From the NCBI GenBank assembly GCA_964556185.1, contig CAZKVI010000003.1:2089-66088 (forward strand): a stretch of 64,000 bases of DNA. The letters run 5' to 3'. Made by a program: the position numbers and the translations under genes. Origin of the DNA: an uncultured Methanosarcinales archaeon (lineage in GTDB: Archaea > Nanobdellota > Nanobdellia > Woesearchaeales > DSVV01). Positions 3,541 to 58,715 of this stretch are shown one piece after another (position 1 is the stretch's first letter; each line of letters opens with the position of its first letter). The notes beneath the pieces are model-generated. The model was given only the letters and a program-made list of their open reading frames with translations, was not told where the DNA came from and did no database searches.

Positions 3541-3741
3541 GCTGCTATATTTATTATGATCAAACTTGTTTATATACTTCACACCAACCTGTCCAGTGTA
3601 AACAATAATACAAGCTATAACAACAAAATATAGCTAATACAAGCCATATCAACCACTCGCCAACACCTTGTCCAATACATTATTTACATATAAAAAAACT
3701 AAAATTCTGTCCACTGGATGCTAAGAAATAATAAGTAATTC

Positions 3742-29236: not shown

Positions 29237-29356
29237 CGGGCCCACGGGGATTCGAACCCCGGGCCTATGGCTGTCTGTGCGTAAGCAAAGACCCAGTGGA
29301 TCTTTGATCCTAACGCGTAAGAGGCCACCGCTCTAACCAGGCTGAGCTATGAGCCC
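29237..29356 (-). tRNA. tRNA-Lys (anticodon CUU) with a ~45-nt intron at the canonical 37/38 position
   Basis: Minus-strand read: GGGCUCA-UA-GCUC-AGCCUGGUUA-GAGC-G-GUGGC-CUCUUA[intron]A-GCCAU-AGGCC-CGGGG-UUCGAAU-CCCCG-UGGGCCC-G. All four stems pair. The T-loop is TTCGAAT. Confidence 0.7.
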
Positions 29357-32295: not shown

Positions 32296-32973
32296 ATGGA
32301 AAAACTACACAGAGTTCAGAAATTATTAAGCAACTACGGCTATTGTTCTAGACGAAAAGCTGAAACATTAATCCAAGATGGAAGAGTTAGAGTAAATAAC
32401 AAAAGAATTACAATTGGTGATAAAGCTACTGAGAAAGATAATTTATATGTAGATAATAAACTAGTAAATAAAGAAAGTAAAATATACATAATCTTCAACA
32501 AACCTGTTGGTTGTGTAACTGCAGTAAGAGACAGAGATTACAAAACAGTTATGGATTTTGTAAAAGTTAAAGAAAGAGTTTTCCCAATTGGAAGATTAGA
32601 TTTCAACACTTCTGGATTATTATTGTTAACAAATGATGGAGACTTTGCTAACAAAGTAATGCATCCAAGATATGAAGTAGAGAAAACATACATCGTAGAA
32701 ATTGACAGACAAATTAGTAAAAAAGATATGCTAAATATCCAAAGAGGAGTTAAATTAAGAGATGGATTCACTTCCCCAGCTAAACTTAGAAGAATTAACT
32801 TAGATATAATAGAAATTAAAATCCACGAGGGCAAAAACAGAGTTGTAAGAAGAATCTTCAACAAATTAGGTTATAGAATTAACTCATTAGAAAGAGTTGC
32901 AATTGGTAAACTAAGATTAGGCAAATTACAATCTAAAAAATACAAAATTCTAAAAACAGAACCAAGAATTTAA
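32296..32973 (+). CDS. Pseudouridine synthase, RsuA/RluB family, with N-terminal S4 domain
   Basis: S4 segment VQKLLSNYGYCSRRKAETLIQDGRVRVN. Catalytic motif FPIGRLDFNTSGLLLLTNDGDF with the conserved Asp. Confidence 0.8.
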   Translation: MEKLHRVQKLLSNYGYCSRRKAETLIQDGRVRVNNKRITIGDKATEKDNLYVDNKLVNKESKIYIIFNKPVGCVTAVRDRDYKTVMDFVKVKERVFPIGRLDFNTSGLLLLTNDGDFANKVMHPRYEVEKTYIVEIDRQISKKDMLNIQRGVKLRDGFTSPAKLRRINLDIIEIKIHEGKNRVVRRIFNKLGYRINSLERVAIGKLRLGKLQSKKYKILKTEPRI

Positions 32974-35222
32974 CCCCAAGAATAATCAACAACTATATGC
33001 ACTGGAACTATTGTGCCACCATACTCAAAATTTCCCATACCTGCTCCTTGTAATCTTGTTGCATCGTTATTTAATTCTGCTAAAACATCTGGATTATTTG
33101 GATAATGAGGAACAACACTAGTCTTACTTGTAGATGAATCATGGAAATATCCAAATGGATCTGGTGTTGCAATTCCCCAGAAATCACATGTTCTTGAGAA
33201 CTCAGAAGACTCCCACCAAGATAATAACCAGTCAGTACTTCCATCATAAACATTCAAATTAACTTCATAAGCAGAAGGATCATCTTCAGAAGCTTCTAAT
33301 CTTGTTGGTGCTTTACTTGAAGAAGGATATTTCTCATCAACTTCCCATGTATTATATTCAGAACCACTTACAGTACTTGAATCACTTTCCCATTGCAGAC
33401 TACATGATCTTGCGTATTCTATAAATTGGTGTTCATTATAACTATAATAAAGCATTTGATCTTTAACAACAAACTCATCATTGTCCTCGTCATAAACCAA
33501 TGTATCTCTTGACATCATATATCCTCTTTCAAACCAAGATCCTGTTCCAGGATCTCCTGATAAAGTTAATTCAGACATATCTACAGATGTACTATAACTC
33601 CATGAATAAGTTGTATAACCACTCCATTCAGGAGCACATTTACCTTCTGCATCAATATCAAATTGAGTAAATGCAATATTATCTAAATGTGAATTTGCAA
33701 CAATAACAACTGCTACATCTATTTCTTCTGTTGGTCTTGTTCTACAAAATTTTAACTTTTTCAACTCAGAAACATCTTGGTAAAACCAATGCTCTCCAAT
33801 TTTATAAACTATTTGTGTTGCAAAGTCTGGTTGAGAATCTGTAGTAATTAAACTAAAATCAAACTCAACTCTATCAATATCATCTTCAAAGAAATAATAA
33901 TAATACATTATTCCTCCTGGGTTTAAATTAACTTCTTGAGTGTATTTTTCTTTATTCTCAAATGTTTTCTTTTTCCTACTTTGTCCATATGGTTTTTTTG
34001 TTGGTTTATTATTATGATCATAATAAAACTTAAATGGTTCTGTATTGTAATTGTATAAAGCATATTGTTTAAACTCTTCATAAAAGTCTGGTCTATTTTT
34101 TATTGCATCTTTCATACCTAATAAACCTGCTTCATCTAACATTTTCTTGACGACCATTCCATCTTTTCCATATCTATGTGATAAAAACCAAGGCCATAAA
34201 TAAGAACCATATTGATGATAAGTTACATTATCAGAGTCAAAAAAATCTTTATTAAAATAAGGAAAAATATTACTATCAAAACCATGCTCTGTATTAACTT
34301 CAGGATATGTAAAATCTTCTGACCATGTTGCAGTTGATTCCCAAATCCATTCTTCTGTAGAATATGACTTCAAAGGAATATATTGTTGAAAACAATGAAA
34401 TAATTCATGTGCTGTTGATGTTTTTAATGCATCATCACTTTGTGAAGTACTAATTAAAATATGACATCTATTAGCTCCTTCATGATCATCCATATATTGT
34501 TGTCCATCATCTTCTAAGCTTTGTACTTTTACATAAATCCAATCTGTTGGTTCTTTCATTCCAAGATTTTTATATTTATTATAAGAATGTTCTAAAGCAG
34601 CTTTTACAATATCTGCTTTATCAGTTATCCAAGGATCATCATAATGCACTTGCCATTTTCCATCAATTGGATGTTCATTATCCATTGCATTTACTGAAGG
34701 TATAATAGCTACTGCATCTAAAAATTCCCTTGCTAAAGATTCATCTTCTTGATTAATTTTATACCAATAACTTTCAGGATCATCAGGATTTGTAACAAAA
34801 GGTCTTAGAATATCTTGTGTTTCCTCAGAGAAATCATCAATTCTATCATTAATCATCAATAATAAGAAAGAACTATCTCTTCTTTCTGCTCTAATTGATT
34901 TGTATTCATTTGGTAAGTTTTTATGATCAAATGCTTCCAAAACTCTTAGAATATAATACTCTTCTTCTGTAATTATTCCTTTATTATGATAAGCATCATT
35001 GATTAATGTTAGAGATAATGGTTCTTCAGGTTCCTCTGGTTCTCTTTCTTCATAAATATCTAATAACCAGTCTTCAAAATCACTTGTATCTACATTACCA
35101 CCACCAATTGAAAATCCACTATCATCACTTCCACAACCTTTGAATAACAAGAATAGAATTACTAATATTACAATACCTACAATTGCAAGAAGAATAGTTT
35201 TCCGCCCCATAGGCATTTCCAA
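32970..35222 (-). CDS. Membrane-anchored secreted protein with an HExxH zinc-metallopeptidase motif
   Basis: N-terminal signal-anchor (ILLAIVGIVILVILFLLF), a TSTAHELFHCFQQY motif, and a large Trp/Tyr-rich extracytoplasmic domain. Confidence 0.45.
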   Translation of the reverse strand: MEMPMGRKTILLAIVGIVILVILFLLFKGCGSDDSGFSIGGGNVDTSDFEDWLLDIYEEREPEEPEEPLSLTLINDAYHNKGIITEEEYYILRVLEAFDHKNLPNEYKSIRAERRDSSFLLLMINDRIDDFSEETQDILRPFVTNPDDPESYWYKINQEDESLAREFLDAVAIIPSVNAMDNEHPIDGKWQVHYDDPWITDKADIVKAALEHSYNKYKNLGMKEPTDWIYVKVQSLEDDGQQYMDDHEGANRCHILISTSQSDDALKTSTAHELFHCFQQYIPLKSYSTEEWIWESTATWSEDFTYPEVNTEHGFDSNIFPYFNKDFFDSDNVTYHQYGSYLWPWFLSHRYGKDGMVVKKMLDEAGLLGMKDAIKNRPDFYEEFKQYALYNYNTEPFKFYYDHNNKPTKKPYGQSRKKKTFENKEKYTQEVNLNPGGIMYYYYFFEDDIDRVEFDFSLITTDSQPDFATQIVYKIGEHWFYQDVSELKKLKFCRTRPTEEIDVAVVIVANSHLDNIAFTQFDIDAEGKCAPEWSGYTTYSWSYSTSVDMSELTLSGDPGTGSWFERGYMMSRDTLVYDEDNDEFVVKDQMLYYSYNEHQFIEYARSCSLQWESDSSTVSGSEYNTWEVDEKYPSSSKAPTRLEASEDDPSAYEVNLNVYDGSTDWLLSWWESSEFSRTCDFWGIATPDPFGYFHDSSTSKTSVVPHYPNNPDVLAELNNDATRLQGAGMGNFEYGGTIVPVHIVVDYSWG

Positions 35223-40091: not shown

Positions 40092-42887
40092 ATGTCAATA
40101 CAACCTACAAAGAAAAACCCAATATTCTCATTTATTATACCGATCTTAATTGTAATTTTCTTTTCATCAACTAAATTAATCAATTTAGTAACAGATTATT
40201 GGTGGTTCGATGCATTAGGTTTCAAAGAAATCTTTATGATCAGCTTAAAAGCTAAATTAACATTATTCATAGCAGCAGCATTATTCTTCTTCATATTCGC
40301 ATTAATTAATCTAACTATCTCAACCTATCTAAACAAGAAAATAACAATGCCAAAAGGTGTTAAACCAATACCATTTAGATTCAAACTTTTATTAACATCT
40401 TTAGTGGCTTTATTTGTTGGTTTTGTATCTTACAATTCTTGGTTTAATGTTTTGCAATACTTAAATCAAACACCTTTTAATTTACAAGATCCAATATTTT
40501 TTAGAGATGTTGCATTCTATGTGTTTTCATTGCCATTTTTCTTATTTGCCTGGAAATTTTTAATGGCAACTTTAGTAATTACAACAATTATTGTAGCTAT
40601 AGATTATTTACAAGCAATATTCTTTTCATTACTTAAGAAAAAACATGACAAACCACAAGTTGTTGATGCAAACGGAATCCCAAGAAGTACTGGTCAAATA
40701 AACATAGCTGAAATATTCAAAAACATAAAACAATATGCATTAGTACATCTAGCTTTCTTAGGTTCATTATTTTTCATTTTATTAGCTGTAAAACATTATT
40801 TAACAAAATTCTCAATTATGTATTCAGAAGCAGGAATTGTCGTCGGAGCCGGTTATACAGATGTAGTAGTTTTTGTCCCAATTGTAAAATTACTTACAAT
40901 CTTAGCAGTCATTGTGTCTGTATTATTCTTTGTCTGGATTTTTGTAATATCAAAATCACAAAGATTAAAGAAAAGACATATTTTAGCTTACTTCGTAATC
41001 CTATATTTGATATTTTTCTTTATAGCACCAACAGTAATCCCAGGTGTAATTCAAGCATTAAAAGTTGATCCAAATGAAATCAATCTAGAAAAACCTTATA
41101 TTGAAAACAATATTGAATTTACAAAAATTGCTTACGGTTTAGAAGATGTTGAAGAAACAGATTTCTCAGTAGAAATGTCATTAACACCAGAAATCTTAGA
41201 AGAAAATCCAGAAACAATTGATAATGTAAGAATATTAGATTGGAGACCATTAACACAAACATATAAACAAACACAAGAAATAAGGTTGTATTATGATTTA
41301 GCAAATATTGATATTGATAGATATACAATTGAAGGAAAATATACAGAAGTCATGCTCTCACCAAGAGAAATTAATCAATATCAAATCATAGATAATGCAC
41401 AAACATGGGTTAATTTACACATGGTTTATACTCATGGTTATGGTGTTGTAGTAAGTCCTGTTAATAAAGTCACAGAACAAGGAATGCCTGAGTATCTTGT
41501 ACAAGATATTCCATCTGTGTATAATGTTGATGAACCTTCTTTAATTGTAGAAACACCACAAATATATTATGGAGAAATAGACAATGATTTTATCTTAACA
41601 AACACATTAACTCCAGAATTTGATTATCCAAAGGGAAACACAAATGAATACCTGCATTATGATGGAAATGGCGGAATTGTTCTCGACACTTTCTGGAAAA
41701 AAGCATTAATGGCATTAAGATTCATGGATATTAAGATATTATTATCAGATGATTTAACTATAGAAAGTAAGATAATGTTTACAAGAGCAATCCAAGACAG
41801 AATTGCAAAATTAACACCATTCTTAATGCTTGATTATGATCCTTATTTAGTTATCAATGATGGAAAATTATATTGGATACAAGATGCTTACACTTATACA
41901 GGGAACTTCCCATACTCTGAAAAATACAACATGATTAATTACATGAGGAACTCTGTGAAAATTGTAGTCGATGCATACAATGGAGATGTAACTTATTATA
42001 TTGTTGACACAGAAGATCCATTAATTGCAACATATGCAAAAATCTTCCCAGATCAATTTAAGTCATTCGAAGAATTCCCAGAAGGATTAATTGAACATAT
42101 TAGATATCCTGAAAACTTATTTGATATACAAGCTTACATTTATAGTACATATCATATGAATGATCCAACTGTCTTTTATAATAAAGAAGATGCATGGGAT
42201 ATTCCTACAGAAGTCTATGGTACTGGTCAACAAATATATGTTGAACCATATTATATTATTATGAAATTACCAGGAGAAGAATCTGAAGAATTTGTTTTAA
42301 TGACTTCATTTACTCCAATAAGTAAAGATAATATGATTGCATGGCTAGCAGCAAGATCTGACGGAGATAATTATGGTAAACTATTGTTATACAAATTCCC
42401 AAAAGATAAATTAATCTATGGTCCATTACAAATAGAAGCTAAATTTGACCAAGACTCAGAAATATCTCAGCAATTAACACTTTGGTCTCAACAAGGTTCT
42501 AGTGTTACAAGAGGTAACTTATTAGTAATTCCAATTGATGATAGTATTTTATACATTGAACCACTTTATATCCAAGCAGAAACAGGTCAATTGCCAGAAT
42601 TAAAAAGAGTTTTAGTTTCAGATGGAGAAAGAGTAGTAATGGAACAATATTTATCAGATGCATTAGAAATTCTATTCGGAAAATCATCAACAGTTGAAGA
42701 TACAGAAGACGACAGGGAATATACTGGAGATGTAGAATACTCAGGCGATGAAACAGATGAAGAATTAATGCAATCTGCTCAAGATTACTATGATTCAATA
42801 TTAGAATCTATGGAATCTGGTGATTGGGTAGAATTTGGAGAAAACTTTGACAATCTTGGCCAAGTTTTGAATGAATTGAATAATTAA
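40092..42887 (+). CDS. UPF0182-family large membrane protein (N-terminal multi-TM region plus large extracytoplasmic domain)
   Basis: 931 aa. About seven TM helices in the first 300 aa are followed by a long soluble region carrying motifs I associate with COG1615 (GNLLVIPIDDSILYIEPLYIQA). Confidence 0.6.
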   Translation: MSIQPTKKNPIFSFIIPILIVIFFSSTKLINLVTDYWWFDALGFKEIFMISLKAKLTLFIAAALFFFIFALINLTISTYLNKKITMPKGVKPIPFRFKLLLTSLVALFVGFVSYNSWFNVLQYLNQTPFNLQDPIFFRDVAFYVFSLPFFLFAWKFLMATLVITTIIVAIDYLQAIFFSLLKKKHDKPQVVDANGIPRSTGQINIAEIFKNIKQYALVHLAFLGSLFFILLAVKHYLTKFSIMYSEAGIVVGAGYTDVVVFVPIVKLLTILAVIVSVLFFVWIFVISKSQRLKKRHILAYFVILYLIFFFIAPTVIPGVIQALKVDPNEINLEKPYIENNIEFTKIAYGLEDVEETDFSVEMSLTPEILEENPETIDNVRILDWRPLTQTYKQTQEIRLYYDLANIDIDRYTIEGKYTEVMLSPREINQYQIIDNAQTWVNLHMVYTHGYGVVVSPVNKVTEQGMPEYLVQDIPSVYNVDEPSLIVETPQIYYGEIDNDFILTNTLTPEFDYPKGNTNEYLHYDGNGGIVLDTFWKKALMALRFMDIKILLSDDLTIESKIMFTRAIQDRIAKLTPFLMLDYDPYLVINDGKLYWIQDAYTYTGNFPYSEKYNMINYMRNSVKIVVDAYNGDVTYYIVDTEDPLIATYAKIFPDQFKSFEEFPEGLIEHIRYPENLFDIQAYIYSTYHMNDPTVFYNKEDAWDIPTEVYGTGQQIYVEPYYIIMKLPGEESEEFVLMTSFTPISKDNMIAWLAARSDGDNYGKLLLYKFPKDKLIYGPLQIEAKFDQDSEISQQLTLWSQQGSSVTRGNLLVIPIDDSILYIEPLYIQAETGQLPELKRVLVSDGERVVMEQYLSDALEILFGKSSTVEDTEDDREYTGDVEYSGDETDEELMQSAQDYYDSILESMESGDWVEFGENFDNLGQVLNELNN

Positions 42888-45766: not shown

Positions 45767-46648
45767 ATGAACAAATCAATTATAATCTCATTAATACTTA
45801 TACTTGTCTTAATCACATCAGTTTATGCATTAGAAGGTTCTAGAACTGAATTAGAAAAAGCATCTGCTCAAGAATATGGCTATGCAAGAGGATATGACCA
45901 AGCTTCTGATGGAATGTCAAAAGATCCAAATTGGGTTAGCAAATATACAAATAGATTAAGTAGTATTGCAAGACACTATGTAATTGATGTAACTGAAGAA
46001 GAAATTGAAGCATATCAATCAGCAAAAGGTACATATTTGTTAGCATATAAACAAGGCTATGATGATTATAAACAAGGAGAACCTGAACCACAAACTAAAA
46101 AAGTTGAAAAAGTTGAAAGATATGGAACAGTTACAGAAGAAATAACAGAATCACCTTTAACAAATATAGATTGGGATAAATCTACAGAAGAACTTGGTTA
46201 TGAATTCGGTGTTTATGATGCACAACAAGGCAATGCAAAATCTCCTTATACAATTTTGAATAAACTTAGTTGGGATACTTCTTTGAAAATAAAAGCACGA
46301 AGAATAGTTAATGAAAAAGTAGACTTTATCAAAGCATACAAAAAAGGATATGAAGCATCTGATTCTGTTGAAATAGTAAGACAACAAGACAAAGGCATGG
46401 CTGAAAAAGGAGAATCTGAAATAATTGGCTGGGCACTAGGTTATTCTCATGCAATTAATGGCCAAGAACAAGACTCAGGAGTTATTTATGATTACACATA
46501 CCTTAGCAGGCTTCCTAAGGATCTATTTGACAAAAGTGTACATCATATGTTACCACGTAGATTAAAAATCAGTCCTAATGAAAGACATTGGTTTGAACAA
46601 GGCTATAACAATGGCTATGCAGATGGTTTGCTGAAGTTAGAAGAATGA
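45767..46648 (+). CDS. Secreted repeat protein (signal peptide; repeated Y-x-x-G-Y-D/E motifs)
   Basis: N-terminal signal SIIISLILILVLITSVYALEG. At least five GY-rich repeats (YARGYDQASDG, AYKQGYDDYKQG, KAYKKGYEASD, GYNNGYADG and others). Confidence 0.45.
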   Translation: MNKSIIISLILILVLITSVYALEGSRTELEKASAQEYGYARGYDQASDGMSKDPNWVSKYTNRLSSIARHYVIDVTEEEIEAYQSAKGTYLLAYKQGYDDYKQGEPEPQTKKVEKVERYGTVTEEITESPLTNIDWDKSTEELGYEFGVYDAQQGNAKSPYTILNKLSWDTSLKIKARRIVNEKVDFIKAYKKGYEASDSVEIVRQQDKGMAEKGESEIIGWALGYSHAINGQEQDSGVIYDYTYLSRLPKDLFDKSVHHMLPRRLKISPNERHWFEQGYNNGYADGLLKLEE

Positions 46649-46755
46649 TGGTAATTATATAACATTAAATATTGTTTATCACAACATCTGATGTTAAACT
46701 AAAGTTCTCTAAAATTAACAGATTGTTAATAACAAAGAACAAGTGAAAAACTTCT

Positions 46756-47571
46756 CTACTTAAAGTCATGTTCTTTGTATTTCTTAAGAAGTCCTAAAAT
46801 TTCCTTATCTTTAATATCTTTCAATTTTAAAATAATATTATTTATATCATCGCCTTCTTCACTATTGTCTTCTTTTCTAAAACTTATTGAAATTTTATCA
46901 TCTTGCCAAATAAAATATCTCAATATCTCAATATCTTTATCATTAGAGTTGTCCTCTAGCCATTTTCCAAGCTTTTTCTTTAATTTAAATAAATCTTCAT
47001 CATATTTTGGTGTTTTAGTATAAAGTGCTCTAGCGAAACCCTCTAATCCAATAATACTATTAAGTTTTTTCTTTGTTTTTCTTGAATAATATTCATAGTC
47101 TGTTCTACTAATTGGTTTTTCCTCAATAATCCTTTTAATTATTTGTTTTTCTTTTTTTGTGAAAATTTGAGATAGCCACATCTGTAGATTTCTCTCTGCA
47201 TAGATTTTTTGCTTGTCAATTATTAATTCAGATTTTTTTAATCTAGCTAATTGCAATTCAAACTCTTGTTTAAATTCATCATAATCAAGATTTCCTTTAT
47301 TACTAAACTCAGGCAATTGTTTATCAATATTATTCTCTTCAAATATTATTCTTGTAAAAGCTAATATTTGGCTAAAAATCTTTTTTTTAGGTGTTTTTTG
47401 ATATAATTCTTCAATATCTAAGTCATACTTATAAATTAGAAATGGAATAGCTTTCAAATATCTTATATTCTCAGTCTTCAAAATAGATAAAATTAGTTTT
47501 TCTTTGCTTTTATCTGCACCAAGCATCCTGTAGCCTGCATCAGTAAGCTTTTTCTCTATTGCTGTTGCCAT
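46756..47571 (-). CDS. Hypothetical protein (second gene of the inserted two-gene cassette)
   Basis: 271 aa. It overlaps the upstream nucleotidyltransferase-like gene by 16 nt. Confidence 0.35.
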   Translation of the reverse strand: MATAIEKKLTDAGYRMLGADKSKEKLILSILKTENIRYLKAIPFLIYKYDLDIEELYQKTPKKKIFSQILAFTRIIFEENNIDKQLPEFSNKGNLDYDEFKQEFELQLARLKKSELIIDKQKIYAERNLQMWLSQIFTKKEKQIIKRIIEEKPISRTDYEYYSRKTKKKLNSIIGLEGFARALYTKTPKYDEDLFKLKKKLGKWLEDNSNDKDIEILRYFIWQDDKISISFRKEDNSEEGDDINNIILKLKDIKDKEILGLLKKYKEHDFK

Positions 47572-48176
47572 TTTTTAACCTCATTTATTATTTCTTTATT
47601 TTCCATATTCCATTCTTTAAATTTTATTTCAATTAGATCTAATAATTTTTGTTTATAATTTGCAACAATAGATGTTTGCATAGTTTCTTTATATCTACTA
47701 ACAAGTTCTTTAAGATCTATTTTCTCTTTTTCAAAAATTCTTTTTACATCATCAAAGTCTCTAGAATCACCTCTTGCTAATTTACTTATTATAACATCAT
47801 ACAAAGATAATGTATAAAGTTCAATCTTACCAAATGATTGAATATGTTTGGATTTTTCTAAACAATCTGGAAGTAAATCAGTTCCTAAAATATATGAACT
47901 ATGAAAGACATCAAAAGCCAAACCTTCTTGTGTAATCCAGCGAATATGTCCTGTTTTCTCAAATCCAATCTGTTCAAATATCTTACAGATATATTTGTAT
48001 TCTTTATCTGAGTGGATATTAATATCTATGTCTAATGTTGATTGTTTGATATTAAGTATTGTTAATGCTGTTCCACCTAATGCATACATCTTAGTTTTCT
48101 TTTCAATAAATTTTGATAGGGATTCAAGTAATTCAAAGAGTTCATTAGCATTAATTTCTTTTTTATTGTGAGGCAT
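47556..48176 (-). CDS. Nucleotidyltransferase-fold protein (AbiEii/MNT-like) inside the inserted cassette
   Basis: YALGGTALTILNIKQSTLDIDINI fits the G-G-x(n)-DxD nucleotidyltransferase signature. Confidence 0.4.
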   Translation of the reverse strand: MPHNKKEINANELFELLESLSKFIEKKTKMYALGGTALTILNIKQSTLDIDINIHSDKEYKYICKIFEQIGFEKTGHIRWITQEGLAFDVFHSSYILGTDLLPDCLEKSKHIQSFGKIELYTLSLYDVIISKLARGDSRDFDDVKRIFEKEKIDLKELVSRYKETMQTSIVANYKQKLLDLIEIKFKEWNMENKEIINEVKKWQQQ

Positions 48177-48553
48177 ATTACTAATAAAACAGCTTTAGTA
48201 TATAAATCTTCCTATTTTTGTACGTATATATACAATTATTGTATAAAAAACTCACAAAGAAGGCTATAACAATGACTATGCAGATGGATTGTTGAAGTTG
48301 GAAGAATGAATATAAACAAAGAAAACTAGCAAATAATGTAGTGGTTAACTTTTTAATAAATTACTATTTAATATGTAAAATGTAGTGGTTATATATTTCT
48401 CTAAATTAGGTGTCTACATTTATGGTGTTTTGTAGTCACCCATATATTGATTATTTATTTCTAACTAGTTCAATTAATTTCATTCTTACTTTGGTTCAAA
48501 TTAAGACCAAAAAAGTTCTTCTTAAGATTTGAGTATGGATTGTAAGAAAAAAA

Positions 48554-48649: not shown

Positions 48650-48763
48650 CGCTGTGGCCCGGATTTGAACCGGGATATCCCGGAGGAAACAAGCTAAACA
48701 GTGCATGCCTTGAAAATACATACATTTCCAGGCTTGCGCAGTACCAGGTTGTGCCACCACAGC
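48650..48763 (-). tRNA. tRNA-Ser (anticodon GGA) with a ~30-nt intron at 37/38 and a long variable arm
   Basis: Acceptor GCUGUGG/CCACAGC plus G. Anticodon stem CAAGC/GCUUG. Loop CUGGAA[intron]A. Variable arm ~15 nt. T-arm CCCGG-UUCAAAU-CCGGG. Confidence 0.65.
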
Positions 48764-48770
48764 AAAAAAA

Positions 48771-48897
48771 GGTGGCAGTGGCGGGATCTGAACCCGCGGC
48801 TTCTAGATCGCCCAGATATAAAGTTTAATCATCGGCATGAGCCTCATCACTCAAATCTTATGAGTCTAGCACTCTAACCAGGCTGAGTTACACTGCC
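48771..48897 (-). tRNA. tRNA-Met (CAU anticodon; possibly Ile2 if C34 is modified) with a ~50-nt intron at 37/38, encoded CC, and an oligo-T terminator
   Basis: Acceptor GGCAGUG/CACUGCC plus A plus CC. D-arm ACUC-AGCCUGGUUA-GAGU. Anticodon stem CUAGA/UCUAG. Loop CUCAUA[intron]A. T-arm GCGGG-UUCAGAU-CCCGC. The intron contains GUGAUGA (C-box-like). Confidence 0.65.
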
Positions 48898-50120: not shown

Positions 50121-50269
50121 AGCGAAGTTAGAAGTTCAACAAGAACTTCTCATTATTACCCATATACTGGATAATAACCTTCATATCAATATTAATGCCA
50201 TAGGTTATATATAAACCTTTCGGTTATGTAGTTACTTTAGAGGAGTTAATATATAAAAGAAAGTATATA

Positions 50270-50341
50270 TGGACTCACCGAGATTTGAACTCGGAGTCTC
50301 CCCGAAGCCAACGGGGTGCGATACCATTTCGCCATAAGCCC
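50270..50341 (-). tRNA. tRNA-Ala (anticodon GGC), intron-less
   Basis: Acceptor GGGCUUA/UGAGUCC includes the G3:U70 alanine identity pair. D-arm GCGA-AAUGGUA-UCGC. Anticodon arm CCCCG-UUGGCUU-CGGGG. T-arm CCGAG-UUCAAAU-CUCGG. Confidence 0.8.
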
Positions 50342-50508
50342 ATACAATGCTAGCTACATATATGCTTATATATAATTTACGCTAATTTCTCACTATATGT
50401 AGTACTTGTACACATTACATAACTTTCTAATAAAGCAATCCTAATATACAAATCATAACCTTTTTATATCACCTTAGTCATACTTTGACTTAACACGGGG
50501 GTGTTTAA

Positions 50509-51340: not shown

Positions 51341-51583
51341 TTACTGTAAATCTTTATGATATAAAGCAATAATATAAATGACTCTTTTTTCAATCCTATA
51401 TGATAATCTAAATGGAGGAATATACAACTCTCTTGTCCCTTTTCTATTATACATCATAGGTTTGCCAATCTCAGGATTATCTTTTATTTTAGAAATTTGT
51501 TTGATGATTTTCTGTTTAAGGGCATTATTCTTAATCTTACTAAATTCCTTCTTAAATAAAGAATCAAAAATAACTTCTACCAC
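51341..51583 (-). CDS. RelE/ParE-family type II toxin
   Basis: 80 aa. C-terminus ...RELYIPPFRLSYRIEKRVIYIIALYHKDLQ follows the RelE/ParE pattern. It overlaps the upstream antitoxin gene by 7 nt. Confidence 0.55.
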   Translation of the reverse strand: MVEVIFDSLFKKEFSKIKNNALKQKIIKQISKIKDNPEIGKPMMYNRKGTRELYIPPFRLSYRIEKRVIYIIALYHKDLQ

Positions 51584-51843
51584 TTTTTCATTTCCTCAAG
51601 AAAATCATCAAATTCCATTTTAATGCCTTTACCTTCTTCAATTCTCTTCCAAGCTTGTTCTGTTCTTTTTGCAAATTCTAGATCTTCTTTTAGATTTTTC
51701 TCTAATTCTGTAGCTTTCTTCATAATTAATTGATGGTCATTCTTAATAATGATTAATTTATCTCCTTCATGAAGATCTCCTCTCATTTCATTAGGAATTA
51801 CAACTTGGCCTTTTGAACTCATTCGTGTTATAGCAACATCCAT
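51577..51843 (-). CDS. AbrB/MazE/SpoVT-type antitoxin
   Basis: MDVAITRMSSKGQVVIPNEMRGDLHEGDKLII is a swapped-hairpin beta-barrel DNA-binding motif. Confidence 0.6.
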   Translation of the reverse strand: MDVAITRMSSKGQVVIPNEMRGDLHEGDKLIIIKNDHQLIMKKATELEKNLKEDLEFAKRTEQAWKRIEEGKGIKMEFDDFLEEMKKW

Positions 51844-51960: not shown

Positions 51961-52386
51961 TTACTGTAACCAAATAGGCAACATTGGACTAACTATTGGA
52001 GCTACTAATTCCCATGCATATGGTGCTAATATGATAATAACTCCTAAAATCAATGTATGATACCAACGTTCACCAACTTTTCCTGCAATAGCTGCTGCAC
52101 CAGCAATTTTAAACATTGCAATAATACCTATCACAACCCTAATACCAAATTCTACAAACCAATCAGCTGTAAAAGCTAAATTCATCCATCCAAGAACAAA
52201 ACTAATATTCATACTTACAAAAACAAAGAATAATGTAAATGGCAGAGCATGCAAAGCATGAGTAAACCAACCCATTCCTGCTTCATCACTATGTACAAAC
52301 ACAACTTCAATAAGCCCAATCAAAATACCCATAACAATAGCAGGCCCTATAACATATGTTTGTACAACTATCTCTTCTGTCACCAT
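51961..52386 (-). CDS. Integral membrane protein (4 TM)
   Basis: 141 aa, hydrophobic. Confidence 0.4.
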   Translation of the reverse strand: MVTEEIVVQTYVIGPAIVMGILIGLIEVVFVHSDEAGMGWFTHALHALPFTLFFVFVSMNISFVLGWMNLAFTADWFVEFGIRVVIGIIAMFKIAGAAAIAGKVGERWYHTLILGVIIILAPYAWELVAPIVSPMLPIWLQ

Positions 52387-52469: not shown

Positions 52470-53072
52470 ATGCAGTGGAAAAAACTATCTCCATACATAT
52501 TATCTTTCTTTGTGTTACTTACAGCAGTTTATGCAAGAACTAGGTTTCCAACAGGAGAATTAAGAGATGTTATGAATGTATTTGGAGATATTTACAACCA
52601 AGCACCATATTTAGTTGATGCATTAGTATTATTAATTATATTTGTACCTTTAGCAAGGAAGATCCTAGGAGAAAGACTAGGTAAAGTCCCAGCAACAGGC
52701 TTAGGATTTTTATTAGTGCTTTCAGTTATTGTTTCAGAAGCAAAATTCGATTATAGTATTATTAGGGATTTTAGTATTCCAGCAGTTATAATCTTATTAT
52801 CAATGTTTGGAATTAGTTTATTTGTTATGTTAAAACAATTTGATGCAAATACTTGGTTAGCAGTCAGTGCTGGTTGGGTAGCTGTTGTCGTAGTATCTTA
52901 TTTTGCAGTCCCAGATGTTGTTGAAATGATACAAAGAGATTATGAAGTCATTTGGTGGTTTTTAATTGTATTAACTGGATTTTTTATACTTGCATTTGTT
53001 TTTAGTATGTTCTTTGGCGGTGGCGGAGGGGGCCATCATGAACCAGCAGCTCCAGCAGCACCTCATCCTTAA
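52470..53072 (+). CDS. Integral membrane protein with a Gly/His/Pro-rich C-terminal tail
   Basis: N-terminal signal/TM, about 5 TM helices, and a tail GGGGGGHHEPAAPAAPHP. Confidence 0.4.
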   Translation: MQWKKLSPYILSFFVLLTAVYARTRFPTGELRDVMNVFGDIYNQAPYLVDALVLLIIFVPLARKILGERLGKVPATGLGFLLVLSVIVSEAKFDYSIIRDFSIPAVIILLSMFGISLFVMLKQFDANTWLAVSAGWVAVVVVSYFAVPDVVEMIQRDYEVIWWFLIVLTGFFILAFVFSMFFGGGGGGHHEPAAPAAPHP

Positions 53073-53177
53073 TTACTTTTAGTATAAAATCAAACTAAAC
53101 ATTTATATATACTATTTCTTAGAAATTATACTATTGTGGGTAATCAATTAAACTTTCCGAAGGAAAGCAAGAAGTCG

Positions 53178-54143
53178 ATGAGACTTCTGTGGAAGAGGAT
53201 AATATTAGTTTTATCTATATTTCTTGCTACATTGCAGACTACTCTAGCTTATTCTTGGAGTGAGTTTGTAAGCACAACAATGAAAATATACAATGCTCAA
53301 GCAGATTTCTTTTCTAATATATTTAATGCAGCACCTCCTTTATTCCATGCACTCTTTTATTGGCTTTTTATCTATATTGCAATCTTCAGAAAATATGTAA
53401 AACCAAAATTAGGAGCAGGTTTTGCATTGGGAATGCCTGTTTTATTAGCTCTTGGGGTTGTTACAGCTGAACGCTTAACAGGAGTAAGCTTTTTTTGGAT
53501 GTTTTTAATCTTTTTTGGAATATATAAAACATTGTTTGTAATTCTTGCATTCAGAAAAGCTAATTTTCCAGTAATTTTAATTGGATCATTAGCTTTTATT
53601 ATTGCATTTGTTCTTTTATTATTTTACCAACCAGCATGGTTTATTGATTTTAGACAAGATCATCCACTTATTATGTTATTAGGATATATTTTGTTTGCAA
53701 TCTTTTCAATAATTACTTTATTTGGTGCTTTTAGATACATAATTGGTGGAGGTTATAGTAATATTCAATGGCCACCTCCATTTAGACAAACATATAAAGA
53801 TTTATATGGTGATCCAGGATCCTCCTCCTCTTCAGGTCAATCAACACCAAATATGTCAAGATTACATAGAAAAGCTGAAAAGTTTCTTGCAAATTCTGCA
53901 GAATACGCTGCTGCAGAACAAAAGTATGCACAAATGAATGCATCACAAAGAGCAAAAGTAGAAAAAGATATGCAAGATAGTCGAATTTCTTTGATAGCAA
54001 GGGGAACTGCAATAAGAAATCATAAAAAATATGAAAGAGATGTTCCACAAGATGTTAAACATAGATTTGAAACAGCATTTAATGCTATTATGACTCAAGG
54101 TGGCTCACATGGTGGAGCAGGTGGCGGAGGCCCTGGCCATTAA
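53178..54143 (+). CDS. Integral membrane protein with a Gly/His-rich C-terminal tail
   Basis: Start placed at the internal ATG (MRLLWKRIILVLSIFLATL, signal-like). It has multiple TM helices and a tail GGSHGGAGGGGPGH. The track ORF begins at 53136. Confidence 0.4.
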   Translation: MRLLWKRIILVLSIFLATLQTTLAYSWSEFVSTTMKIYNAQADFFSNIFNAAPPLFHALFYWLFIYIAIFRKYVKPKLGAGFALGMPVLLALGVVTAERLTGVSFFWMFLIFFGIYKTLFVILAFRKANFPVILIGSLAFIIAFVLLLFYQPAWFIDFRQDHPLIMLLGYILFAIFSIITLFGAFRYIIGGGYSNIQWPPPFRQTYKDLYGDPGSSSSSGQSTPNMSRLHRKAEKFLANSAEYAAAEQKYAQMNASQRAKVEKDMQDSRISLIARGTAIRNHKKYERDVPQDVKHRFETAFNAIMTQGGSHGGAGGGGPGH

Positions 54144-54176
54144 CCAGGACATTAAAATAAAGAAAAGAGGGAATAA

Positions 54177-55388
54177 ATGGGAATAAGAGATCTTTTTGAA
54201 TCACATCTACAAAGAGTCTTTGAAGATGCAATGGCTAAAGTAGAAGAAGATCTAGAATACTTAGAACAAGAAATAGCTAAAATAAAAGCTAGAGCAGAGA
54301 AAAAAAGACAATTAATTTTACAAGCACAACAATCTGGTCAATATACAGAAGCTCAAGCAGCAGAGCAATTAAGATTTGTAAATGGCAAAGAAGAAAGAGA
54401 ACTAAATAGATTAAGGCAAGGTTTGGATTTAGTTGATGGAACTACCCCAGAAAAAGAAACAGCAGCAAAAGCAGAAATCCCTCGAAGAAAAGAATTTGAT
54501 TCTTTAAGTCATCAAGTTGAAGGTTGTGCAGATGATGCAGAACATACTTTAGCTAAAACTAGAAAATATCTAAATTACTTAAAATCACTTTTGGTTCTAA
54601 GAGTTAGAGAAACACATGAAATTGAAGCAGATATGCAAAAAATAAGAACTCTACTTTCAAATTTTCAACATGCAACGGAATCTGAACAATTAAAACAAGA
54701 TTCAACAAGAATGCAAAAAATAAAACACAATGCTCTTAAAGAATTAGAGGTACTTATAATGCAAGCATCTCATTTTCTTAAATTAGAAGAAAGAGCAGAG
54801 AGAAAAGTAGTAAGAATTGAGAGAAGAATCTTTAGCACAGAAGCAGATTTTGAAAAAGCAGACCAACAATTACAACAATTTATTCTTAAAACAGAATATT
54901 TTATTAAACAAGCATGGCATAATCAACAAGCTTATCAAAAAGCAGAACAACAATTTGGTCAATTAAACTCAGCTTTACATTCCCTGAATGATGATTTTAT
55001 TAATGTTTATAGGCCATTATTAGCAATGACAAAAAAAGTTTATCTAAGAGAACAAAGAATGGAATCTGCATTAAAACAAGTAAGGAACATGGTAGAAACA
55101 TTAGATACTTCATCTAATCAATTACAAAATGCACAAACTTTTAGAAGATTATTTGAACAACTTAGTTTAATTGAACAAGTTTTACAACAAGAAATGGGTA
55201 CTGGTTCTATCCAAGAGTTCTTTCCAGGAATACAAGGAGAAGTGCGAGCATTAAGAAGAGCTGAACAAGATATAGATAGAATGATCCAAGTTCTTGAACA
55301 AATAAATTCTATATTTGATGAATTAAGAAAAATGGAACTTGAAGCAATACAACAACAATCTCCTGAATTAATAGAGCTAGCAGCATAA
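54177..55388 (+). CDS. Long coiled-coil protein (Gln/Glu-rich)
   Basis: 403 aa with heptad periodicity. Stop and next start are adjacent (55388/55390). Confidence 0.4.
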   Translation: MGIRDLFESHLQRVFEDAMAKVEEDLEYLEQEIAKIKARAEKKRQLILQAQQSGQYTEAQAAEQLRFVNGKEERELNRLRQGLDLVDGTTPEKETAAKAEIPRRKEFDSLSHQVEGCADDAEHTLAKTRKYLNYLKSLLVLRVRETHEIEADMQKIRTLLSNFQHATESEQLKQDSTRMQKIKHNALKELEVLIMQASHFLKLEERAERKVVRIERRIFSTEADFEKADQQLQQFILKTEYFIKQAWHNQQAYQKAEQQFGQLNSALHSLNDDFINVYRPLLAMTKKVYLREQRMESALKQVRNMVETLDTSSNQLQNAQTFRRLFEQLSLIEQVLQQEMGTGSIQEFFPGIQGEVRALRRAEQDIDRMIQVLEQINSIFDELRKMELEAIQQQSPELIELAA

Positions 55389-55389
55389 A

Positions 55390-57348
55390 ATGAAAAACAA
55401 ACTTATTCTTATAATTTGTATCTCAATCTTTTTAATAATTCCATTATTTTCCACAATATCTTTTGCACAAGCTGGCCATTTAAAATTATTAGCAGTAACT
55501 TCTGAGACTAAAGGTGTAGAAGCAAACCTTGATTTAAGACTAATGCCAGGTACTGGAAGTGTTTTTATTGCAACATCTCCTTTAACAAAAATAGATACAC
55601 AATTATCTACAAGATTTGCTAAAGATATTGCATGCAAATTCCTCGAGAAGGATTGTTCAAATTTAGATTTCTTTTATACAATAACAAGTAATGCATCTAT
55701 TGTTGGTGGCCCAAGTGCAGGTGCAGCAATAAGTGCTTTAACAATAGCCTTACTTGAGGGCTATGAATTAGATGAAAGCTTTACAATAACAGGAACAATT
55801 AATTCAGGTGGTCTAGTCGGAAGTGTAGGTGGCTTAAAACCTAAAATAGAAATTGCTTCAAAAATTGGAGTAAAGAAAGTTTTAATACCTGCAGGAGAAA
55901 GATTTATCATAAATGAAACAATTATTTCTTTAAACACCACTGGATCAAATGCAACATTAAATTCATCAATCAATAATATTAACAATACAAACACTAATAA
56001 TAACACAACAAACACCAATTCAACACTTACTGCAACTATAAACAATACAATTGATTTATACGAATTTGGTAAAGAATTTGGAATAGAAGTAAAAGAAGTT
56101 GCAAATTTATATGATGTTATGTATGAATTTACAAATATAACTTATGAACAACTCTCAGGAGAAATCACACCAGATGATTGGTATATTGAAACAATGAGAA
56201 ATATTTCTAATGATCTTTGCGAAAGAAGCAATAACTTACAAAATGAACTTACTACACCTGAAAACACATCTAGTGATTACTTGTTTTACTCAACAGGATT
56301 AAATTTAACACAAAATGCAGAATCTGCATTATCTGAACAAGATTATTACTCAGCAGCATCATTTTGTTTTGGAGCAGCAGGTAAATTTGGTTATTTATTT
56401 CTAAAAAAACAAAATATGACAAACAATGAAACCTTAATAATACTTAATGAAACAAATGGTTCTATTGATTCAATAAGACAAAAAATAAACAATATTAATT
56501 TACAAACAATCACAGATATTCAAACTTATGTTATTGTAAATGAAAGATTAAAAGAAGCAGAGAACACATTAACTCTTGTTAATGATGCTCTTCAAGAATA
56601 TATTAATATGACTTTAACTTTAACAAATGCTAATATAACAGAAACAAATAACACAAAACAACAACTTGAACAAGTTCATGATATACTTTTACAAAAATTA
56701 GCTTATTCAATAGAAAGATTAAATAGTGCAGTTGCCTGGAGTAGCTTTTTCAATAAACCAGGTTCTACTTTTAACTTTAGCCCAGAATCTATTCATCAAT
56801 CATGTATAATAAAACAAAAAGAAGTAGAAGAAAGAATAAACTATATTCAAATTATTACTCTATTAGGTTTAGAAGGTGTAAAACAAGGTTTAGATGATGC
56901 AAAACAAGAAGAAAAAAGAGGTAATTTTATTCTTTGTCTTTTCAAAGCATCTAAAGCAAAAGCAGAAGCAGATACTGTAATGAGTATGATTGGAGCTAAA
57001 GAAGACTCAATTCAAGGTATTATTGATACAAGATTAACATTAGCTACAGATGTTATACTAAAACAACAACGCCAAGCTAGTTTCCCAATATTTGGTTATA
57101 GTTATTATGAATATGCAAAGACATTACAAATTGATGATCCTAGTTCTGCTTTGATATATTCTCATTATGCTCTTGAATTAAGTAACCTTGATATGTACTT
57201 TGAAAAAGAGCTTGATTTAGCTACTTTAGATACAGAGCTAACTAAAGATCCTGGCAATACATTCTATTTTATAATTGGATTTATTCTAGGAATATTAGTA
57301 ACAATACTCTATGTAATGAATTTTAAACCAAAGAAATCAAAAAAGTAA
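55390..57348 (+). CDS. Membrane-anchored extracytoplasmic Lon-type (S16) protease-domain protein without an AAA+ module
   Basis: N-terminal signal. NASIVGGPSAGAAISALTIALLEG has the Lon catalytic Ser motif. SVGGLKPKIEIASKIG has the catalytic Lys. An Asn/Thr-rich linker carries many N-x-S/T sequons. C-terminal TM FYFIIGFILGILVTILYV. Confidence 0.55.
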   Translation: MKNKLILIICISIFLIIPLFSTISFAQAGHLKLLAVTSETKGVEANLDLRLMPGTGSVFIATSPLTKIDTQLSTRFAKDIACKFLEKDCSNLDFFYTITSNASIVGGPSAGAAISALTIALLEGYELDESFTITGTINSGGLVGSVGGLKPKIEIASKIGVKKVLIPAGERFIINETIISLNTTGSNATLNSSINNINNTNTNNNTTNTNSTLTATINNTIDLYEFGKEFGIEVKEVANLYDVMYEFTNITYEQLSGEITPDDWYIETMRNISNDLCERSNNLQNELTTPENTSSDYLFYSTGLNLTQNAESALSEQDYYSAASFCFGAAGKFGYLFLKKQNMTNNETLIILNETNGSIDSIRQKINNINLQTITDIQTYVIVNERLKEAENTLTLVNDALQEYINMTLTLTNANITETNNTKQQLEQVHDILLQKLAYSIERLNSAVAWSSFFNKPGSTFNFSPESIHQSCIIKQKEVEERINYIQIITLLGLEGVKQGLDDAKQEEKRGNFILCLFKASKAKAEADTVMSMIGAKEDSIQGIIDTRLTLATDVILKQQRQASFPIFGYSYYEYAKTLQIDDPSSALIYSHYALELSNLDMYFEKELDLATLDTELTKDPGNTFYFIIGFILGILVTILYVMNFKPKKSKK

Positions 57349-57412: not shown

Positions 57413-57454
57413 CCCCGCAAACACTCCCGAAGGAATGTTTGCGCGGGAAAAAGA
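57413..57454 (-). terminator. GC-rich hairpin followed by T6 on the minus strand
   Basis: Minus strand reads cccgcgcaaacattccttcgggagtgtttgcgggg then tttttt. Confidence 0.35.
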
Positions 57455-57658: not shown

Positions 57659-58192
57659 ATGGCCACTGGTAAGAATGTCGACAGAAGTTTATTACAAGTT
57701 GTACGTTATAGGGGTATTTTTGATATAGAAGCAGTCTATAAAGCTGTATATGATTGGTTGAGATCAAGAGGTATGGAAGTCCAAGAAACAAAATTCAAGA
57801 CATATGATAGGGCATATGGAAGAGAACATCAAATTAAATGGAGTGCTTGGAATAATGAAACTGACTTTGTAAAAAATTGGATATTTATCACATGGAGATT
57901 TATTGATGTTGTAGAATTAGAAGTAGTTAAAGATGGAAAAAAGAAAAAGTTAAGTAAATGTCAAGCAGATATTAGAATTCAACACGCAATGGAGTTTGAT
58001 TATAGTGAACGTTTTACAAAAACAGTGTACCAAATCCGCGCATTGGAATTTATTACAGGTTGGTTATTTAGAAAAAAGATAGATACTTTATGGGAAGATA
58101 AGTTAAGGTTTAAATGTTATGAATTGCAAAATGTTGTAAAAGAAACATTAGAAGCTCAAACAAAAGGTAATGAGCATTATGATGTATGGTAA
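57659..58192 (+). CDS. Hypothetical protein (paralogue 1 of a tandem pair)
   Basis: 177 aa. Blocks shared with the next ORF: VYDWLRSRG / VDRWLREKG, VVKDGKKKKL / VEKDGMKKKL, and W-rich segments. Confidence 0.4.
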   Translation: MATGKNVDRSLLQVVRYRGIFDIEAVYKAVYDWLRSRGMEVQETKFKTYDRAYGREHQIKWSAWNNETDFVKNWIFITWRFIDVVELEVVKDGKKKKLSKCQADIRIQHAMEFDYSERFTKTVYQIRALEFITGWLFRKKIDTLWEDKLRFKCYELQNVVKETLEAQTKGNEHYDVW

Positions 58193-58214
58193 TTAGATAA
58201 ACAAAGGTATTAAT

Positions 58215-58715
58215 ATGGTCGAGAGAAGAATTGTTGTAGATACAATGAGGATGCATTACCAAGGTCTTCTTAATGTAGTTGAATTTATGGAATTTGTAGA
58301 TCGTTGGCTTCGTGAAAAAGGTTATTATAAAAAAATTGGCAGAACAGATGAAAAAGTTTTCAAAGAAAACAGACAAGTAGAAATTGAATGGGAACCTTGG
58401 AAAAAAGTTGATGAAAATGCAAAAATAGTTATTCAAATGAAATTCTTATTCACAAATGTAAAAGATGTTGTTGTAGAAAAAGACGGAATGAAGAAAAAAC
58501 TTCAACAAGCCAAGATCTCAGTTACAATGATGGGACTTATGGAATCAGACTGGGAACACAAATGGGAAAAAAGACCTTTTTACTTCTTATTCTTCTCAGT
58601 TATTGATCAGTTTGTCTGGAAAATTCATTCTGATAAGTACTTTGGTTTAGTAGCAGAAGACTGCACAGAACTAAGAAACGAAATGAAAGCTTTCTTGAAT
58701 TTGTATAGGTTCTGA
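58215..58715 (+). CDS. Hypothetical protein (paralogue 2 of a tandem pair)
   Basis: 166 aa, colinear similarity with 57659..58192. Confidence 0.4.
   Translation: MVERRIVVDTMRMHYQGLLNVVEFMEFVDRWLREKGYYKKIGRTDEKVFKENRQVEIEWEPWKKVDENAKIVIQMKFLFTNVKDVVVEKDGMKKKLQQAKISVTMMGLMESDWEHKWEKRPFYFLFFSVIDQFVWKIHSDKYFGLVAEDCTELRNEMKAFLNLYRF

Follow-up and report, generated by a model that had tools for sequence, protein, structure and literature searches.

The stretch analysed here, hereafter the window, comprises 64,000 nucleotides of archaeal DNA (contig CAZKVI010000003.1) with a G+C content of ~31%; its housekeeping genes include those for isoleucyl-tRNA synthetase (IleRS), elongation factor 2 (EF-2), ribosomal protein P0/L10, and an archaeal TFIIE-alpha. 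Four close-packed open reading frames (ORFs), designated ORF1 to ORF4, lie on the + strand across positions 52470-57348, and the arrangement of four co-directional, tightly spaced genes described in an earlier reading of the letters alone (the sequence-only reading) is indeed found there. ORF1 (52470..53072) and ORF2 (53136..54143, from a GTG codon) encode polytopic membrane proteins of 200 and 335 residues, respectively, ORF3 (54177..55388) encodes a Gln/Glu/Lys-rich protein of 403 residues, and ORF4 (55390..57348) encodes a type I membrane protein of 652 residues, predicted to be an extracytoplasmic, ATPase-less serine protease of the S16 (Lon) fold. The gaps between them are 63, 33, and 1 nucleotides, in that order. 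ORF4 has its best relatives in metagenome-assembled genomes of Woesearchaeota and Nanoarchaeota; on this and the archaeal housekeeping genes, the source is a DPANN archaeon. We propose herein that ORF4 is probably a serine protease that works without ATP, anchored in the membrane of this archaeon and exposed at its surface.

The Lon proteolytic domain of ORF4 extends over residues ~27-250 (55468..56139, + strand), as delimited by Pfam Lon_C, the structure 1z0b of the Protein Data Bank (PDB), and Foldseek. The Lon_C profile (PF05362), which the sequence-only reading had put forward as a check, matched at 36.1 bits, above its gathering score of 21.1 (E=6.6e-9), and the best NCBIfam match was to the proteolytic domain (P-domain) region of archaeal LonB (TIGR00764, E=7e-13). 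On alignment with A. fulgidus LonB (1z0b; E=2e-12, residues 25-169), Ser109 within GPSAG (codon 55714-55716) and Lys152 within LKPK (codon 55843-55845) fall on the catalytic residues, so the Ser-Lys dyad claimed earlier survives. As this alignment begins at residue 25, where the signal peptide ends, an ATPase cannot be accommodated ahead of the domain, and Pfam and NCBIfam scans of ORF4 found no AAA domain. Ser109 and Lys152 are separated by 42 residues, and a Ser-Lys dyad exactly 42 residues apart is a criterion of S16 (PMC9569914). The residue before the catalytic serine is Pro108; together with the spacing, it marks the active centre as A-type, though the domain overall is closest to LonB. 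These features are conserved among the 84 family members collected, of which 82 were scored for GPSA and spacing: GPSA, including the catalytic serine and Pro108, occurs in 82/82, the 42-residue spacing in 82/82, and the lysine in 84/84, while the position of Thr134 is occupied by Thr in 80 and Ser in 4.

An AlphaFold2 model of ORF4, built with an alignment of 40 relatives, had a predicted local distance difference test score (pLDDT) of 84 and a predicted template modelling score (pTM) of 0.74. It matched the E. coli Lon P-domain (3wu6_A) in Foldseek with a template modelling score of 0.81 and a probability of 1.00, and its top 50 structural matches in the PDB were all P-domains of Lon or BrxL. 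The profile match, the dyad with its spacing, and the fold together make ORF4 a member of MEROPS S16/Pfam Lon_C. An Asn/Thr-rich, disordered stretch dense in N-glycosylation sequons (residues 178-216; 55921..56037, + strand) had previously been regarded as a linker. Its pLDDT is below 50, and in the model it lies between strands 172-180 and 214-222, after which the Lon fold is completed by its final beta-alpha unit; the fold alignment, moreover, runs across it (237 columns versus a 185-residue target). It therefore appears to be an insertion loop at the tip of a beta-hairpin inside the catalytic domain, rather than an interdomain linker, and the consensus of the relatives indicates that it is shorter and variable among them.

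The remainder of ORF4 has the makings of an exported protein. Residues 1-26 (55390..55467) form a predicted signal peptide, recognized by its hydrophobicity, basic n-region, and A-x-A-like site: the N-terminus reads MKNK, followed by a hydrophobic core (hydrophobicity 3.3) and a cleavage site, placed by heuristic estimate between SFA and QAG. A signal peptide was found in 78/84 relatives. The C-terminus carries a transmembrane (TM) helix (residues 621-644) and the basic tail KPKKSKK (57250..57345). Across the 84 relatives, the stretch after this helix has a median length of 15 residues with 8 K/R and 0 D/E, and by the positive-inside rule such a tail is placed in the cytoplasm and the body of ORF4 outside. 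Six cysteines (82/89, 277/326, and 472/516) are invariant in all relatives, as expected for the disulfides of an exported protein. ORF4 also contains 22 N-X-S/T sequons, versus 9.5 expected from its own composition, a number reached by 0/300 shuffles; 10 of the 22 sit at residues 175-218. The density, 3.4 per 100 residues, tops the 54 ORFs of the window, where any other ORF of at least 120 residues has at most 1.4. Thus, the sequon-dense part of the earlier description holds, while the linker does not. Three other window proteins with strongly hydrophobic N-termini, encoded at 32970-35222 (- strand), 40092-42887 (+ strand), and 45767-46648 (+ strand), show no sequon enrichment, and one of them has 1 sequon versus 5.0 expected, so the heavy load is specific to ORF4 and not shared by the window's exported proteins in general. 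Signal peptide, basic tail, invariant cysteines, and sequon enrichment all point to an extracytoplasmic body, and with no AAA match, the type I, extracytoplasmic, ATPase-free S16 protein of the sequence-only reading is borne out as a prediction; neither of the outcomes named there as contrary to it, a cytoplasmic S16 domain or a lost dyad, was observed. Within the TM helix, a conserved G630-x3-G634 hints at helix-helix association. A PGF-CTERM/archaeosortase signal was considered and rejected: the position of PGNTF in ORF4 is not conserved among 40 relatives, and no sorting signal of NCBIfam matched.

Between the Lon domain and the TM helix lies an all-helical domain of ~12 helices (residues ~263-603; 56176..57198, + strand), delimited from a domain model. 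Modelled alone, residues 263-603 reached a pLDDT of 92.5 and a pTM of 0.89. Two cysteine pairs of the domain (277/326 and 472/516) are invariant, and so are its Tyr/Phe motifs (FPI.GYSYYEYA). No significant match was obtained in the PDB (best E=0.06, template modelling score at most 0.2), nor was any match found among the viral predicted structures of BFVD or in Pfam. The like spacing of the two cysteine pairs raised the idea of an internal duplication, which was not upheld by hhalign (probability at most 5%).

ORF4 belongs to a large family. More than 963 relatives were found in a large protein database, and the best 120 of them are all 563-686 residues long, ~40% identical over the full length, and contain PF05362 as the sole domain. 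When one genome was taken per GTDB species, at least 585 species proved to have a full-length relative of like plan with an invariant dyad. The best 80 of these are labelled Woesearchaeota, Nanoarchaeota, Nanoarchaeia, or Nanobdellota, apart from the generic "uncultured Methanosarcinales", one "archaeon", and one "Aminicenantes" bin. Many contigs that carry this DPANN-type gene amid DPANN-like neighbours (L004, L008, L010-L012, L015, and others) are likewise titled "uncultured Methanosarcinales archaeon", and one "Candidatus Aminicenantes bacterium". The outlying labels are probably placeholders, errors, or results of binning contamination. Public databases already list ORF4, as a hypothetical protein bearing a Lon_C domain. 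A relative 76% identical to it (P0002) is named by JGI as a predicted archaeal serine protease of the S18 family, which we take to be the label of COG1750; if so, annotation would already have recognised the family, though under a predicted label only. A literature search covering COG1750, archaeal serine proteases of the S18 family, Lon proteases of Woesearchaeota, and archaeal PF05362 proteins returned no description of the family and no paper naming COG1750.

The sequence-only reading considered such a protein novel because it took Lon domains to be cytoplasmic and coupled to ATP as a rule. This overlooks the many groups of MEROPS S16 that lack ATPase components (PMC9569914), as well as two bacterial proteins, SepM of Streptococcus mutans and YlbL/DdcP of Bacillus subtilis, which are extracytoplasmic and ATPase-less (PMC11197336, PMC6051672). 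SepM, in which a PDZ domain and an S16 domain are joined to a TM segment, cleaves the peptide CSP-21 (PMC11197336); YlbL requires its Ser and Lys and removes YneA, which is membrane-bound and mostly extracellular (PMC6051672). Like ORF4, they combine an S16 Ser-Lys dyad with the lack of AAA+ and a single-TM tether, and they act on extracytoplasmic or membrane substrates (PMC11197336, PMC6051672); for ORF4, location and substrates are predictions. SepM and YlbL are ~340-350 residues long, with an N-terminal anchor and the PDZ domain ahead of S16. ORF4, in contrast, starts with a signal peptide, has S16 first, and continues with a 340-residue helical domain and a C-terminal anchor; no PDZ match was found in Pfam at E up to 0.1, and the NCBIfam model SepM_fam_S16 (NF041438) scored 22.1 bits against a cut-off of 200.

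The closest sequences to the P-domain of ORF4 are those of archaeal LonB (A. fulgidus, M. jannaschii, and T. onnurineus), with which it has in common the fold, the Ser-Lys spacing, and membrane association. In LonB, however, a membrane anchor is inserted into an AAA+ module, the protease domain is cytoplasmic, and Asp stands before the Ser (PMC9569914), whereas ORF4 has no AAA+, has Pro at that place, and is predicted to be extracytoplasmic. The A-type Pro is shared with LonA, but the N-terminal LON domain and AAA+ module of LonA were not found in ORF4 by the Pfam and NCBIfam scans. LonC (MtaLonC of Meiothermus taiwanensis and TTC1975 of Thermus) is an ATP-independent Lon-fold protease (PMC3391209), as proposed for ORF4, and degrades unfolded substrates without ATP (PMC3391209). 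Nonetheless, LonC is cytoplasmic and soluble with a large degenerate AAA-like N-terminal region, where ORF4 has only a 26-residue signal peptide and is predicted to be exported. Identity with BrxL of BREX, or an origin in defence, was rejected, as PADLOC gave 15 bits to the Lon-like part only and no other match in the neighbourhood; a viral origin was rejected likewise, PHROGs yielding only a generic Lon match. Since defining features of each of LonA, LonB, LonC, SepM/YlbL, and BrxL were looked for and not found, ORF4 belongs to none of these. By its predicted function, it belongs to the ATPase-less, membrane-tethered, extracytoplasmic S16 proteases already known from Firmicutes. What appears to be new relative to the characterised systems is the placement of S16 first, the helical domain without a fold relative, the C-terminal anchor, the predicted disulfides, and the putatively glycosylated insertion loop; a further novelty is that the protease is almost universal in one DPANN group.

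The partners of ORF4 are of a different nature. ORF1 and ORF2 have ~6 hydrophobic segments each and are weak paralogs (30% identity, E=6e-6), ORF1 being the shorter. ORF1 is composed of a signal-like N-terminus, an IYNQAPYL motif, ~5 more TM segments, and a Gly/His/Pro tail, whereas ORF2 also starts signal-like and continues with an AAPPLF motif, a TM bundle, a Gly/Pro/Ser-rich linker, a helical, K/R-rich tail of 139 residues that is predicted to lie in the cytoplasm, and a Gly/His end. The two share a short, conserved AP motif as well as a low-complexity segment rich in Gly and Pro, and the Gly/His tails ascribed to them earlier are present in both. The count of hydrophobic segments and the K/R-rich loops (in ORF2, residues 85-91, 138-145, and the tail) suggest that both C-termini are cytoplasmic. 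Pfam and NCBIfam scans assigned ORF1 to no family. ORF2 is represented by 2 clusters only among 1.8 billion proteins, and its family profile found 5 matches among 5.8 billion proteins, all at least 75% identical. ORF3 has only 3 homologs (82-87% identity) among 5.8 billion proteins. It contains 31% charged residues and is predicted to be cytoplasmic, since it has neither a signal peptide nor a hydrophobic or TM segment. The size and Gln/Glu richness previously assigned to it are correct; as for the coiled coil, NCBIfam gave weak SMC-like or coiled-coil matches at most.

Gene callers start ORF2 at ATG 53178 instead, which yields 321 residues (P0127) and widens the gap after ORF1 to 105 nucleotides. 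This ATG lies in the loop of the second of two small hairpins formed by a 49-nucleotide DNA repeat at the 5' end of ORF2 (53151..53199, + strand). The earlier claim that the start codon of the second membrane protein sits inside a recurring hairpin thus stands for this codon, whereas "recurring" comes down to one other locus in the window, 13576-13624 (82% identity). That copy falls within the ribosomal P0/L10 gene (12588-13892), in the part that encodes an acidic, low-complexity tail, is in a different reading frame, and is half-duplicated 30 nucleotides downstream (13576-13654).

Synteny, likewise suggested as a check, was retained in the nearest relatives. On the P0002 contig, gene sizes and order are the same. 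In L084, whose protease is 57% identical, the counterparts of ORF1 (L084:5213-5818), ORF2, and ORF3 (L084:7422-8792, over 280 residues) are 61%, 28%, and 32% identical, respectively, with an additional 225-residue gene between the last two. Beside the cluster, divergently oriented, is ORF0 (51961..52386, - strand), a small membrane protein of 141 residues with four TM segments by hydrophobicity scan, to which no match was found in Pfam, NCBIfam, or PADLOC; homologs occupy the same divergent position in L084 (74% identity) and L008 (65%), and the P0002 contig has a 141-residue minus-strand gene at the equivalent place. Between the window and L084, identity amounts to 92% for a flanking helix-turn-helix (HTH) regulator and 89% for a 128-residue protein, so that rates are strongly heterogeneous along the locus. 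In L004 (protease 45% identical), a profile of ORF1/2 matched 3490-4626 (E=3.7e-16) and that of ORF3 matched 4631-5911 (E=1.5e-6), both genes being directly upstream of the protease. The idea, based on tblastn, that ORF1-3 are wholly absent near distant relatives was therefore abandoned, as the P0126 context and profile hidden Markov models (HMMs) revealed fast-diverged homologs in L084 and L004. The gap between ORF3 and the protease is 1 nucleotide in the window, the P0002 contig, and L084 (3 of 4 contigs), and genes in L084 overlap by 1-4 nucleotides.

A neighbour-joining tree placed the window-type loci in one subclade with L003, L005, L006, L008, and L014. A charged non-TM protein lies directly upstream of the protease at 6/7 loci of this subclade with upstream sequence, and those of L003, L005, and L008 are related to one another; L008 also has a 6-TM protein with a Pro/Gly linker and a helical tail, built like ORF2. 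Comparison by hhalign of the charged proteins with ORF3, and of the TM protein of L008 with ORF1/2, gave probabilities of <1%, and these upstream proteins are therefore architectural analogues only. In ~75/84 relatives, no partner gene occurs within 6 kb of the protease, and the neighbours are unrelated. Hence, the ORF1-4 cluster is a real operon-like unit but restricted to a sublineage, a trait outside the family's core function, and the protease is its sole widely conserved member. Elsewhere, other genes accompany the protease: a double PLDc_2-domain protein of ~330 residues, downstream on the same strand, at 52/83 loci (e.g., L001:10369-11334 and L015:8331-9320; one that was examined has a hydrophobic N-terminal segment), a 183-residue Zn-ribbon protein at 27/83, often between the protease and the PLDc_2 gene, a PfkB kinase at 23/83, often after the PLDc_2 gene, and a topoisomerase-like protein of 738 residues upstream of the protease at 32/83. 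None of these four genes occurs in the window. The PLDc_2 gene may represent a second exported hydrolase tied to the protease, or mere conserved gene order.

On these grounds, a mechanism can be outlined. ORF4 would be exported by Sec, fold outside the cell with three disulfides, and be N-glycosylated, mainly on the variable loop in the Lon domain. Catalysis would follow the pattern of other S16 enzymes, with Lys152 as general base and Ser109 as nucleophile. As there is no unfoldase, substrates would be limited to peptides, unfolded chains, and exposed loops, as with LonC (PMC3391209); by analogy with SepM and YlbL, the likeliest ones are extracytoplasmic, either envelope and secreted proteins of the cell itself, which would be matured or kept under quality control, or proteins of the host and the environment. 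The helical domain would be placed between the catalytic domain and the membrane, where it might, conjecturally, stand in for the non-energetic roles of the AAA+ ring, i.e., oligomerisation and substrate gating or selection, and the GxxxG of the TM helix might help self-association. In this sublineage, ORF4 would be co-transcribed with the cytoplasmic ORF3, after fast-evolving polytopic membrane proteins with cytoplasmic tails. ORF1-3 would then be lineage-specific accessories, and, conceivably, contacts between TM segments would enable ORF3 and the tail of ORF2 to tether the protease or to regulate it. Several points weigh against this picture of a glycosylated, active surface protease. Isolated Lon P-domains can be poorly active. 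The topology is argued from hydrophobicity, charge, cysteines, and sequons, and the number of sequons ranges from 2 to 22 across relatives, so heavy glycosylation is not constant in the family. Moreover, purified YlbL without its TM segment was inactive in vitro (PMC6051672).

Other explanations of the locus were weighed. The conserved order and tight spacing in four contigs, down to a protease identity of 45%, with the 1-nucleotide gap in three of them and the overlaps in L084, could signify that the four genes (or five) form one trans-envelope apparatus, in which ORF1 and ORF2 bridge the cytoplasmic ORF3 to the extracellular ORF4 and either control it outward or signal inward. Such an arrangement would accord with the cytoplasmic location and helical structure predicted for both ORF3 and the tail of ORF2, and with the sister group of L003, L005, and L008, which has charged non-TM proteins directly upstream and a similar 6-TM protein in L008. 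We nevertheless consider it doubtful. The ~75/84 relatives without partners nearby imply that the protease works without them; no relatives of ORF1-3 were detected outside the narrow lineage, and the proteins of the sister group are not detectably homologous to them; ORF4 offers only a 9-residue cytoplasmic tail for contact; and Pfam and NCBIfam scans found no kinase, receiver, or sigma/anti-sigma-like domain in the cluster, so nothing points to signalling. What survives of the novel envelope-processing or signalling apparatus envisaged in the sequence-only reading is therefore the operon-like unit of the nearest relatives, a sublineage trait set within a protease family of at least 585 species. 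Still less should be staked on the more far-reaching idea, improbable in our estimate, that in this sublineage the AAA+ motor of the Lon-fold ring was swapped for a set of ORF1, ORF2, and ORF3 coupling the cell interior to the extracellular protease, with fast evolution arising from a host-facing role and the family's helical domain as a new fold gating the Lon chamber in place of the AAA+ ring. If true, this would be an unknown type of trans-membrane-regulated surface protease in DPANN host interaction.

It is also unlikely that ORF4 serves as a nutrient-scavenging surface hydrolase, which would convert host or environmental protein into importable peptides beside other exported hydrolases, for a host-dependent DPANN cell with reduced biosynthesis. 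The PLDc_2 gene at 52/83 loci, with its hydrophobic N-terminus in the example examined, accords with scavenging, but the same loci share housekeeping neighbours (topoisomerase-like, PfkB, and NAD-synthesis-like), so the linkage may be conserved gene order, and the window has no such gene. The family is near-universal in, and confined to, DPANN-labelled genomes among the matches listed, and the protease and its partners diverge fast (57% for the protease versus 89-92% for the flanking regulators between the window and L084), as surface or host-facing proteins do; yet no peptide transporter is linked, and Lon-fold proteases without an unfoldase are poor at bulk degradation. Finally, non-peptidase homologues are frequent within S16 (PMC9569914), Lon-like domains also occur in BrxL and RadA/Sms, and a large helical domain with heavy predicted glycosylation would fit an inert surface scaffold or adhesin of Lon-like fold. 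That ORF4 is such a structural protein is nonetheless highly improbable, because Ser, Lys, GPSA, the 42-residue spacing, and the Thr134 position are conserved across the 82-84 relatives at ~40% identity, the pattern expected of purifying selection on catalysis.

As a probable surface protease, ORF4 bears on organisms of which little is known at the surface: DPANN archaea are tiny, mostly uncultured, and host-dependent. With an intact active site in at least 585 species, a surface Lon-fold protease would be a good candidate for a core function of this group in the envelope or at the interface with the host. It would also represent a second, independent way of using a Lon domain extracellularly without ATP, by a C-terminal anchor and a helical domain as opposed to the N-terminal anchor and PDZ domain of bacteria. 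Nothing is overturned thereby, as ATPase-less, extracytoplasmic S16 enzymes were already established. The confident models and the invariant Ser109, Lys152, six cysteines, and FP..GYSYYEYA motif provide targets for expression and mutagenesis.

Downstream of ORF4, a GC-rich hairpin (57413..57446, strand not assigned), identified by its folding energy, begins 65 nucleotides past the stop codon within a 311-nucleotide spacer. It has 12 base pairs flanked by A-runs (-20.5 kcal/mol, z=-3.7), occurs once in the window, and is conspicuous against the 31% GC; an Rfam search of the spacer between ORF4 and ORF5, including the hairpin, gave no match. It is likely a 3'-end or terminator-like structure. 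Beyond it lie two paralogs of ~170 residues each, ORF5 (57659-58192) and ORF6 (58215-58715), on the + strand (57659..58715). They are 25% identical (E=5e-10), lack hydrophobic segments, and have no significant family match; ORF5 ends in GNEHYDVW. Members of the ORF5/6 family occur within ~1 kb downstream of the protease in L004 (8677-10253), L070 (9419-10552), L059 (8649-9239), and L069 (8686-9273), and nearby in L014 (5593-6806), in two or three tandem copies at some otherwise dissimilar protease loci.

On the other side, just upstream of the cluster, overlapping genes for a ParE toxin and a MazE/AbrB antitoxin occupy 51341-51843 on the - strand; the matching space in L084 holds different genes, including one for a RelA_SpoT-domain protein. 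A tRNA-Ala(GGC) gene of normal length is found at 50269-50342, and three longer tRNA genes of 114-125 nucleotides (29237-29356, 48650-48763, and 48773-48897) were found by Rfam and missed by ARAGORN, which implies introns. The window also contains a 72-nucleotide direct repeat (46596-46667 and 48257-48328, 81% identity). Its first copy spans the 3' end of ORF 45767-46648 and its second lies ~80 nucleotides beyond the annotated end of ORF 47556-48176, which suggests a duplicated C-terminal coding segment (…GYNNGYADGLLKLEE).

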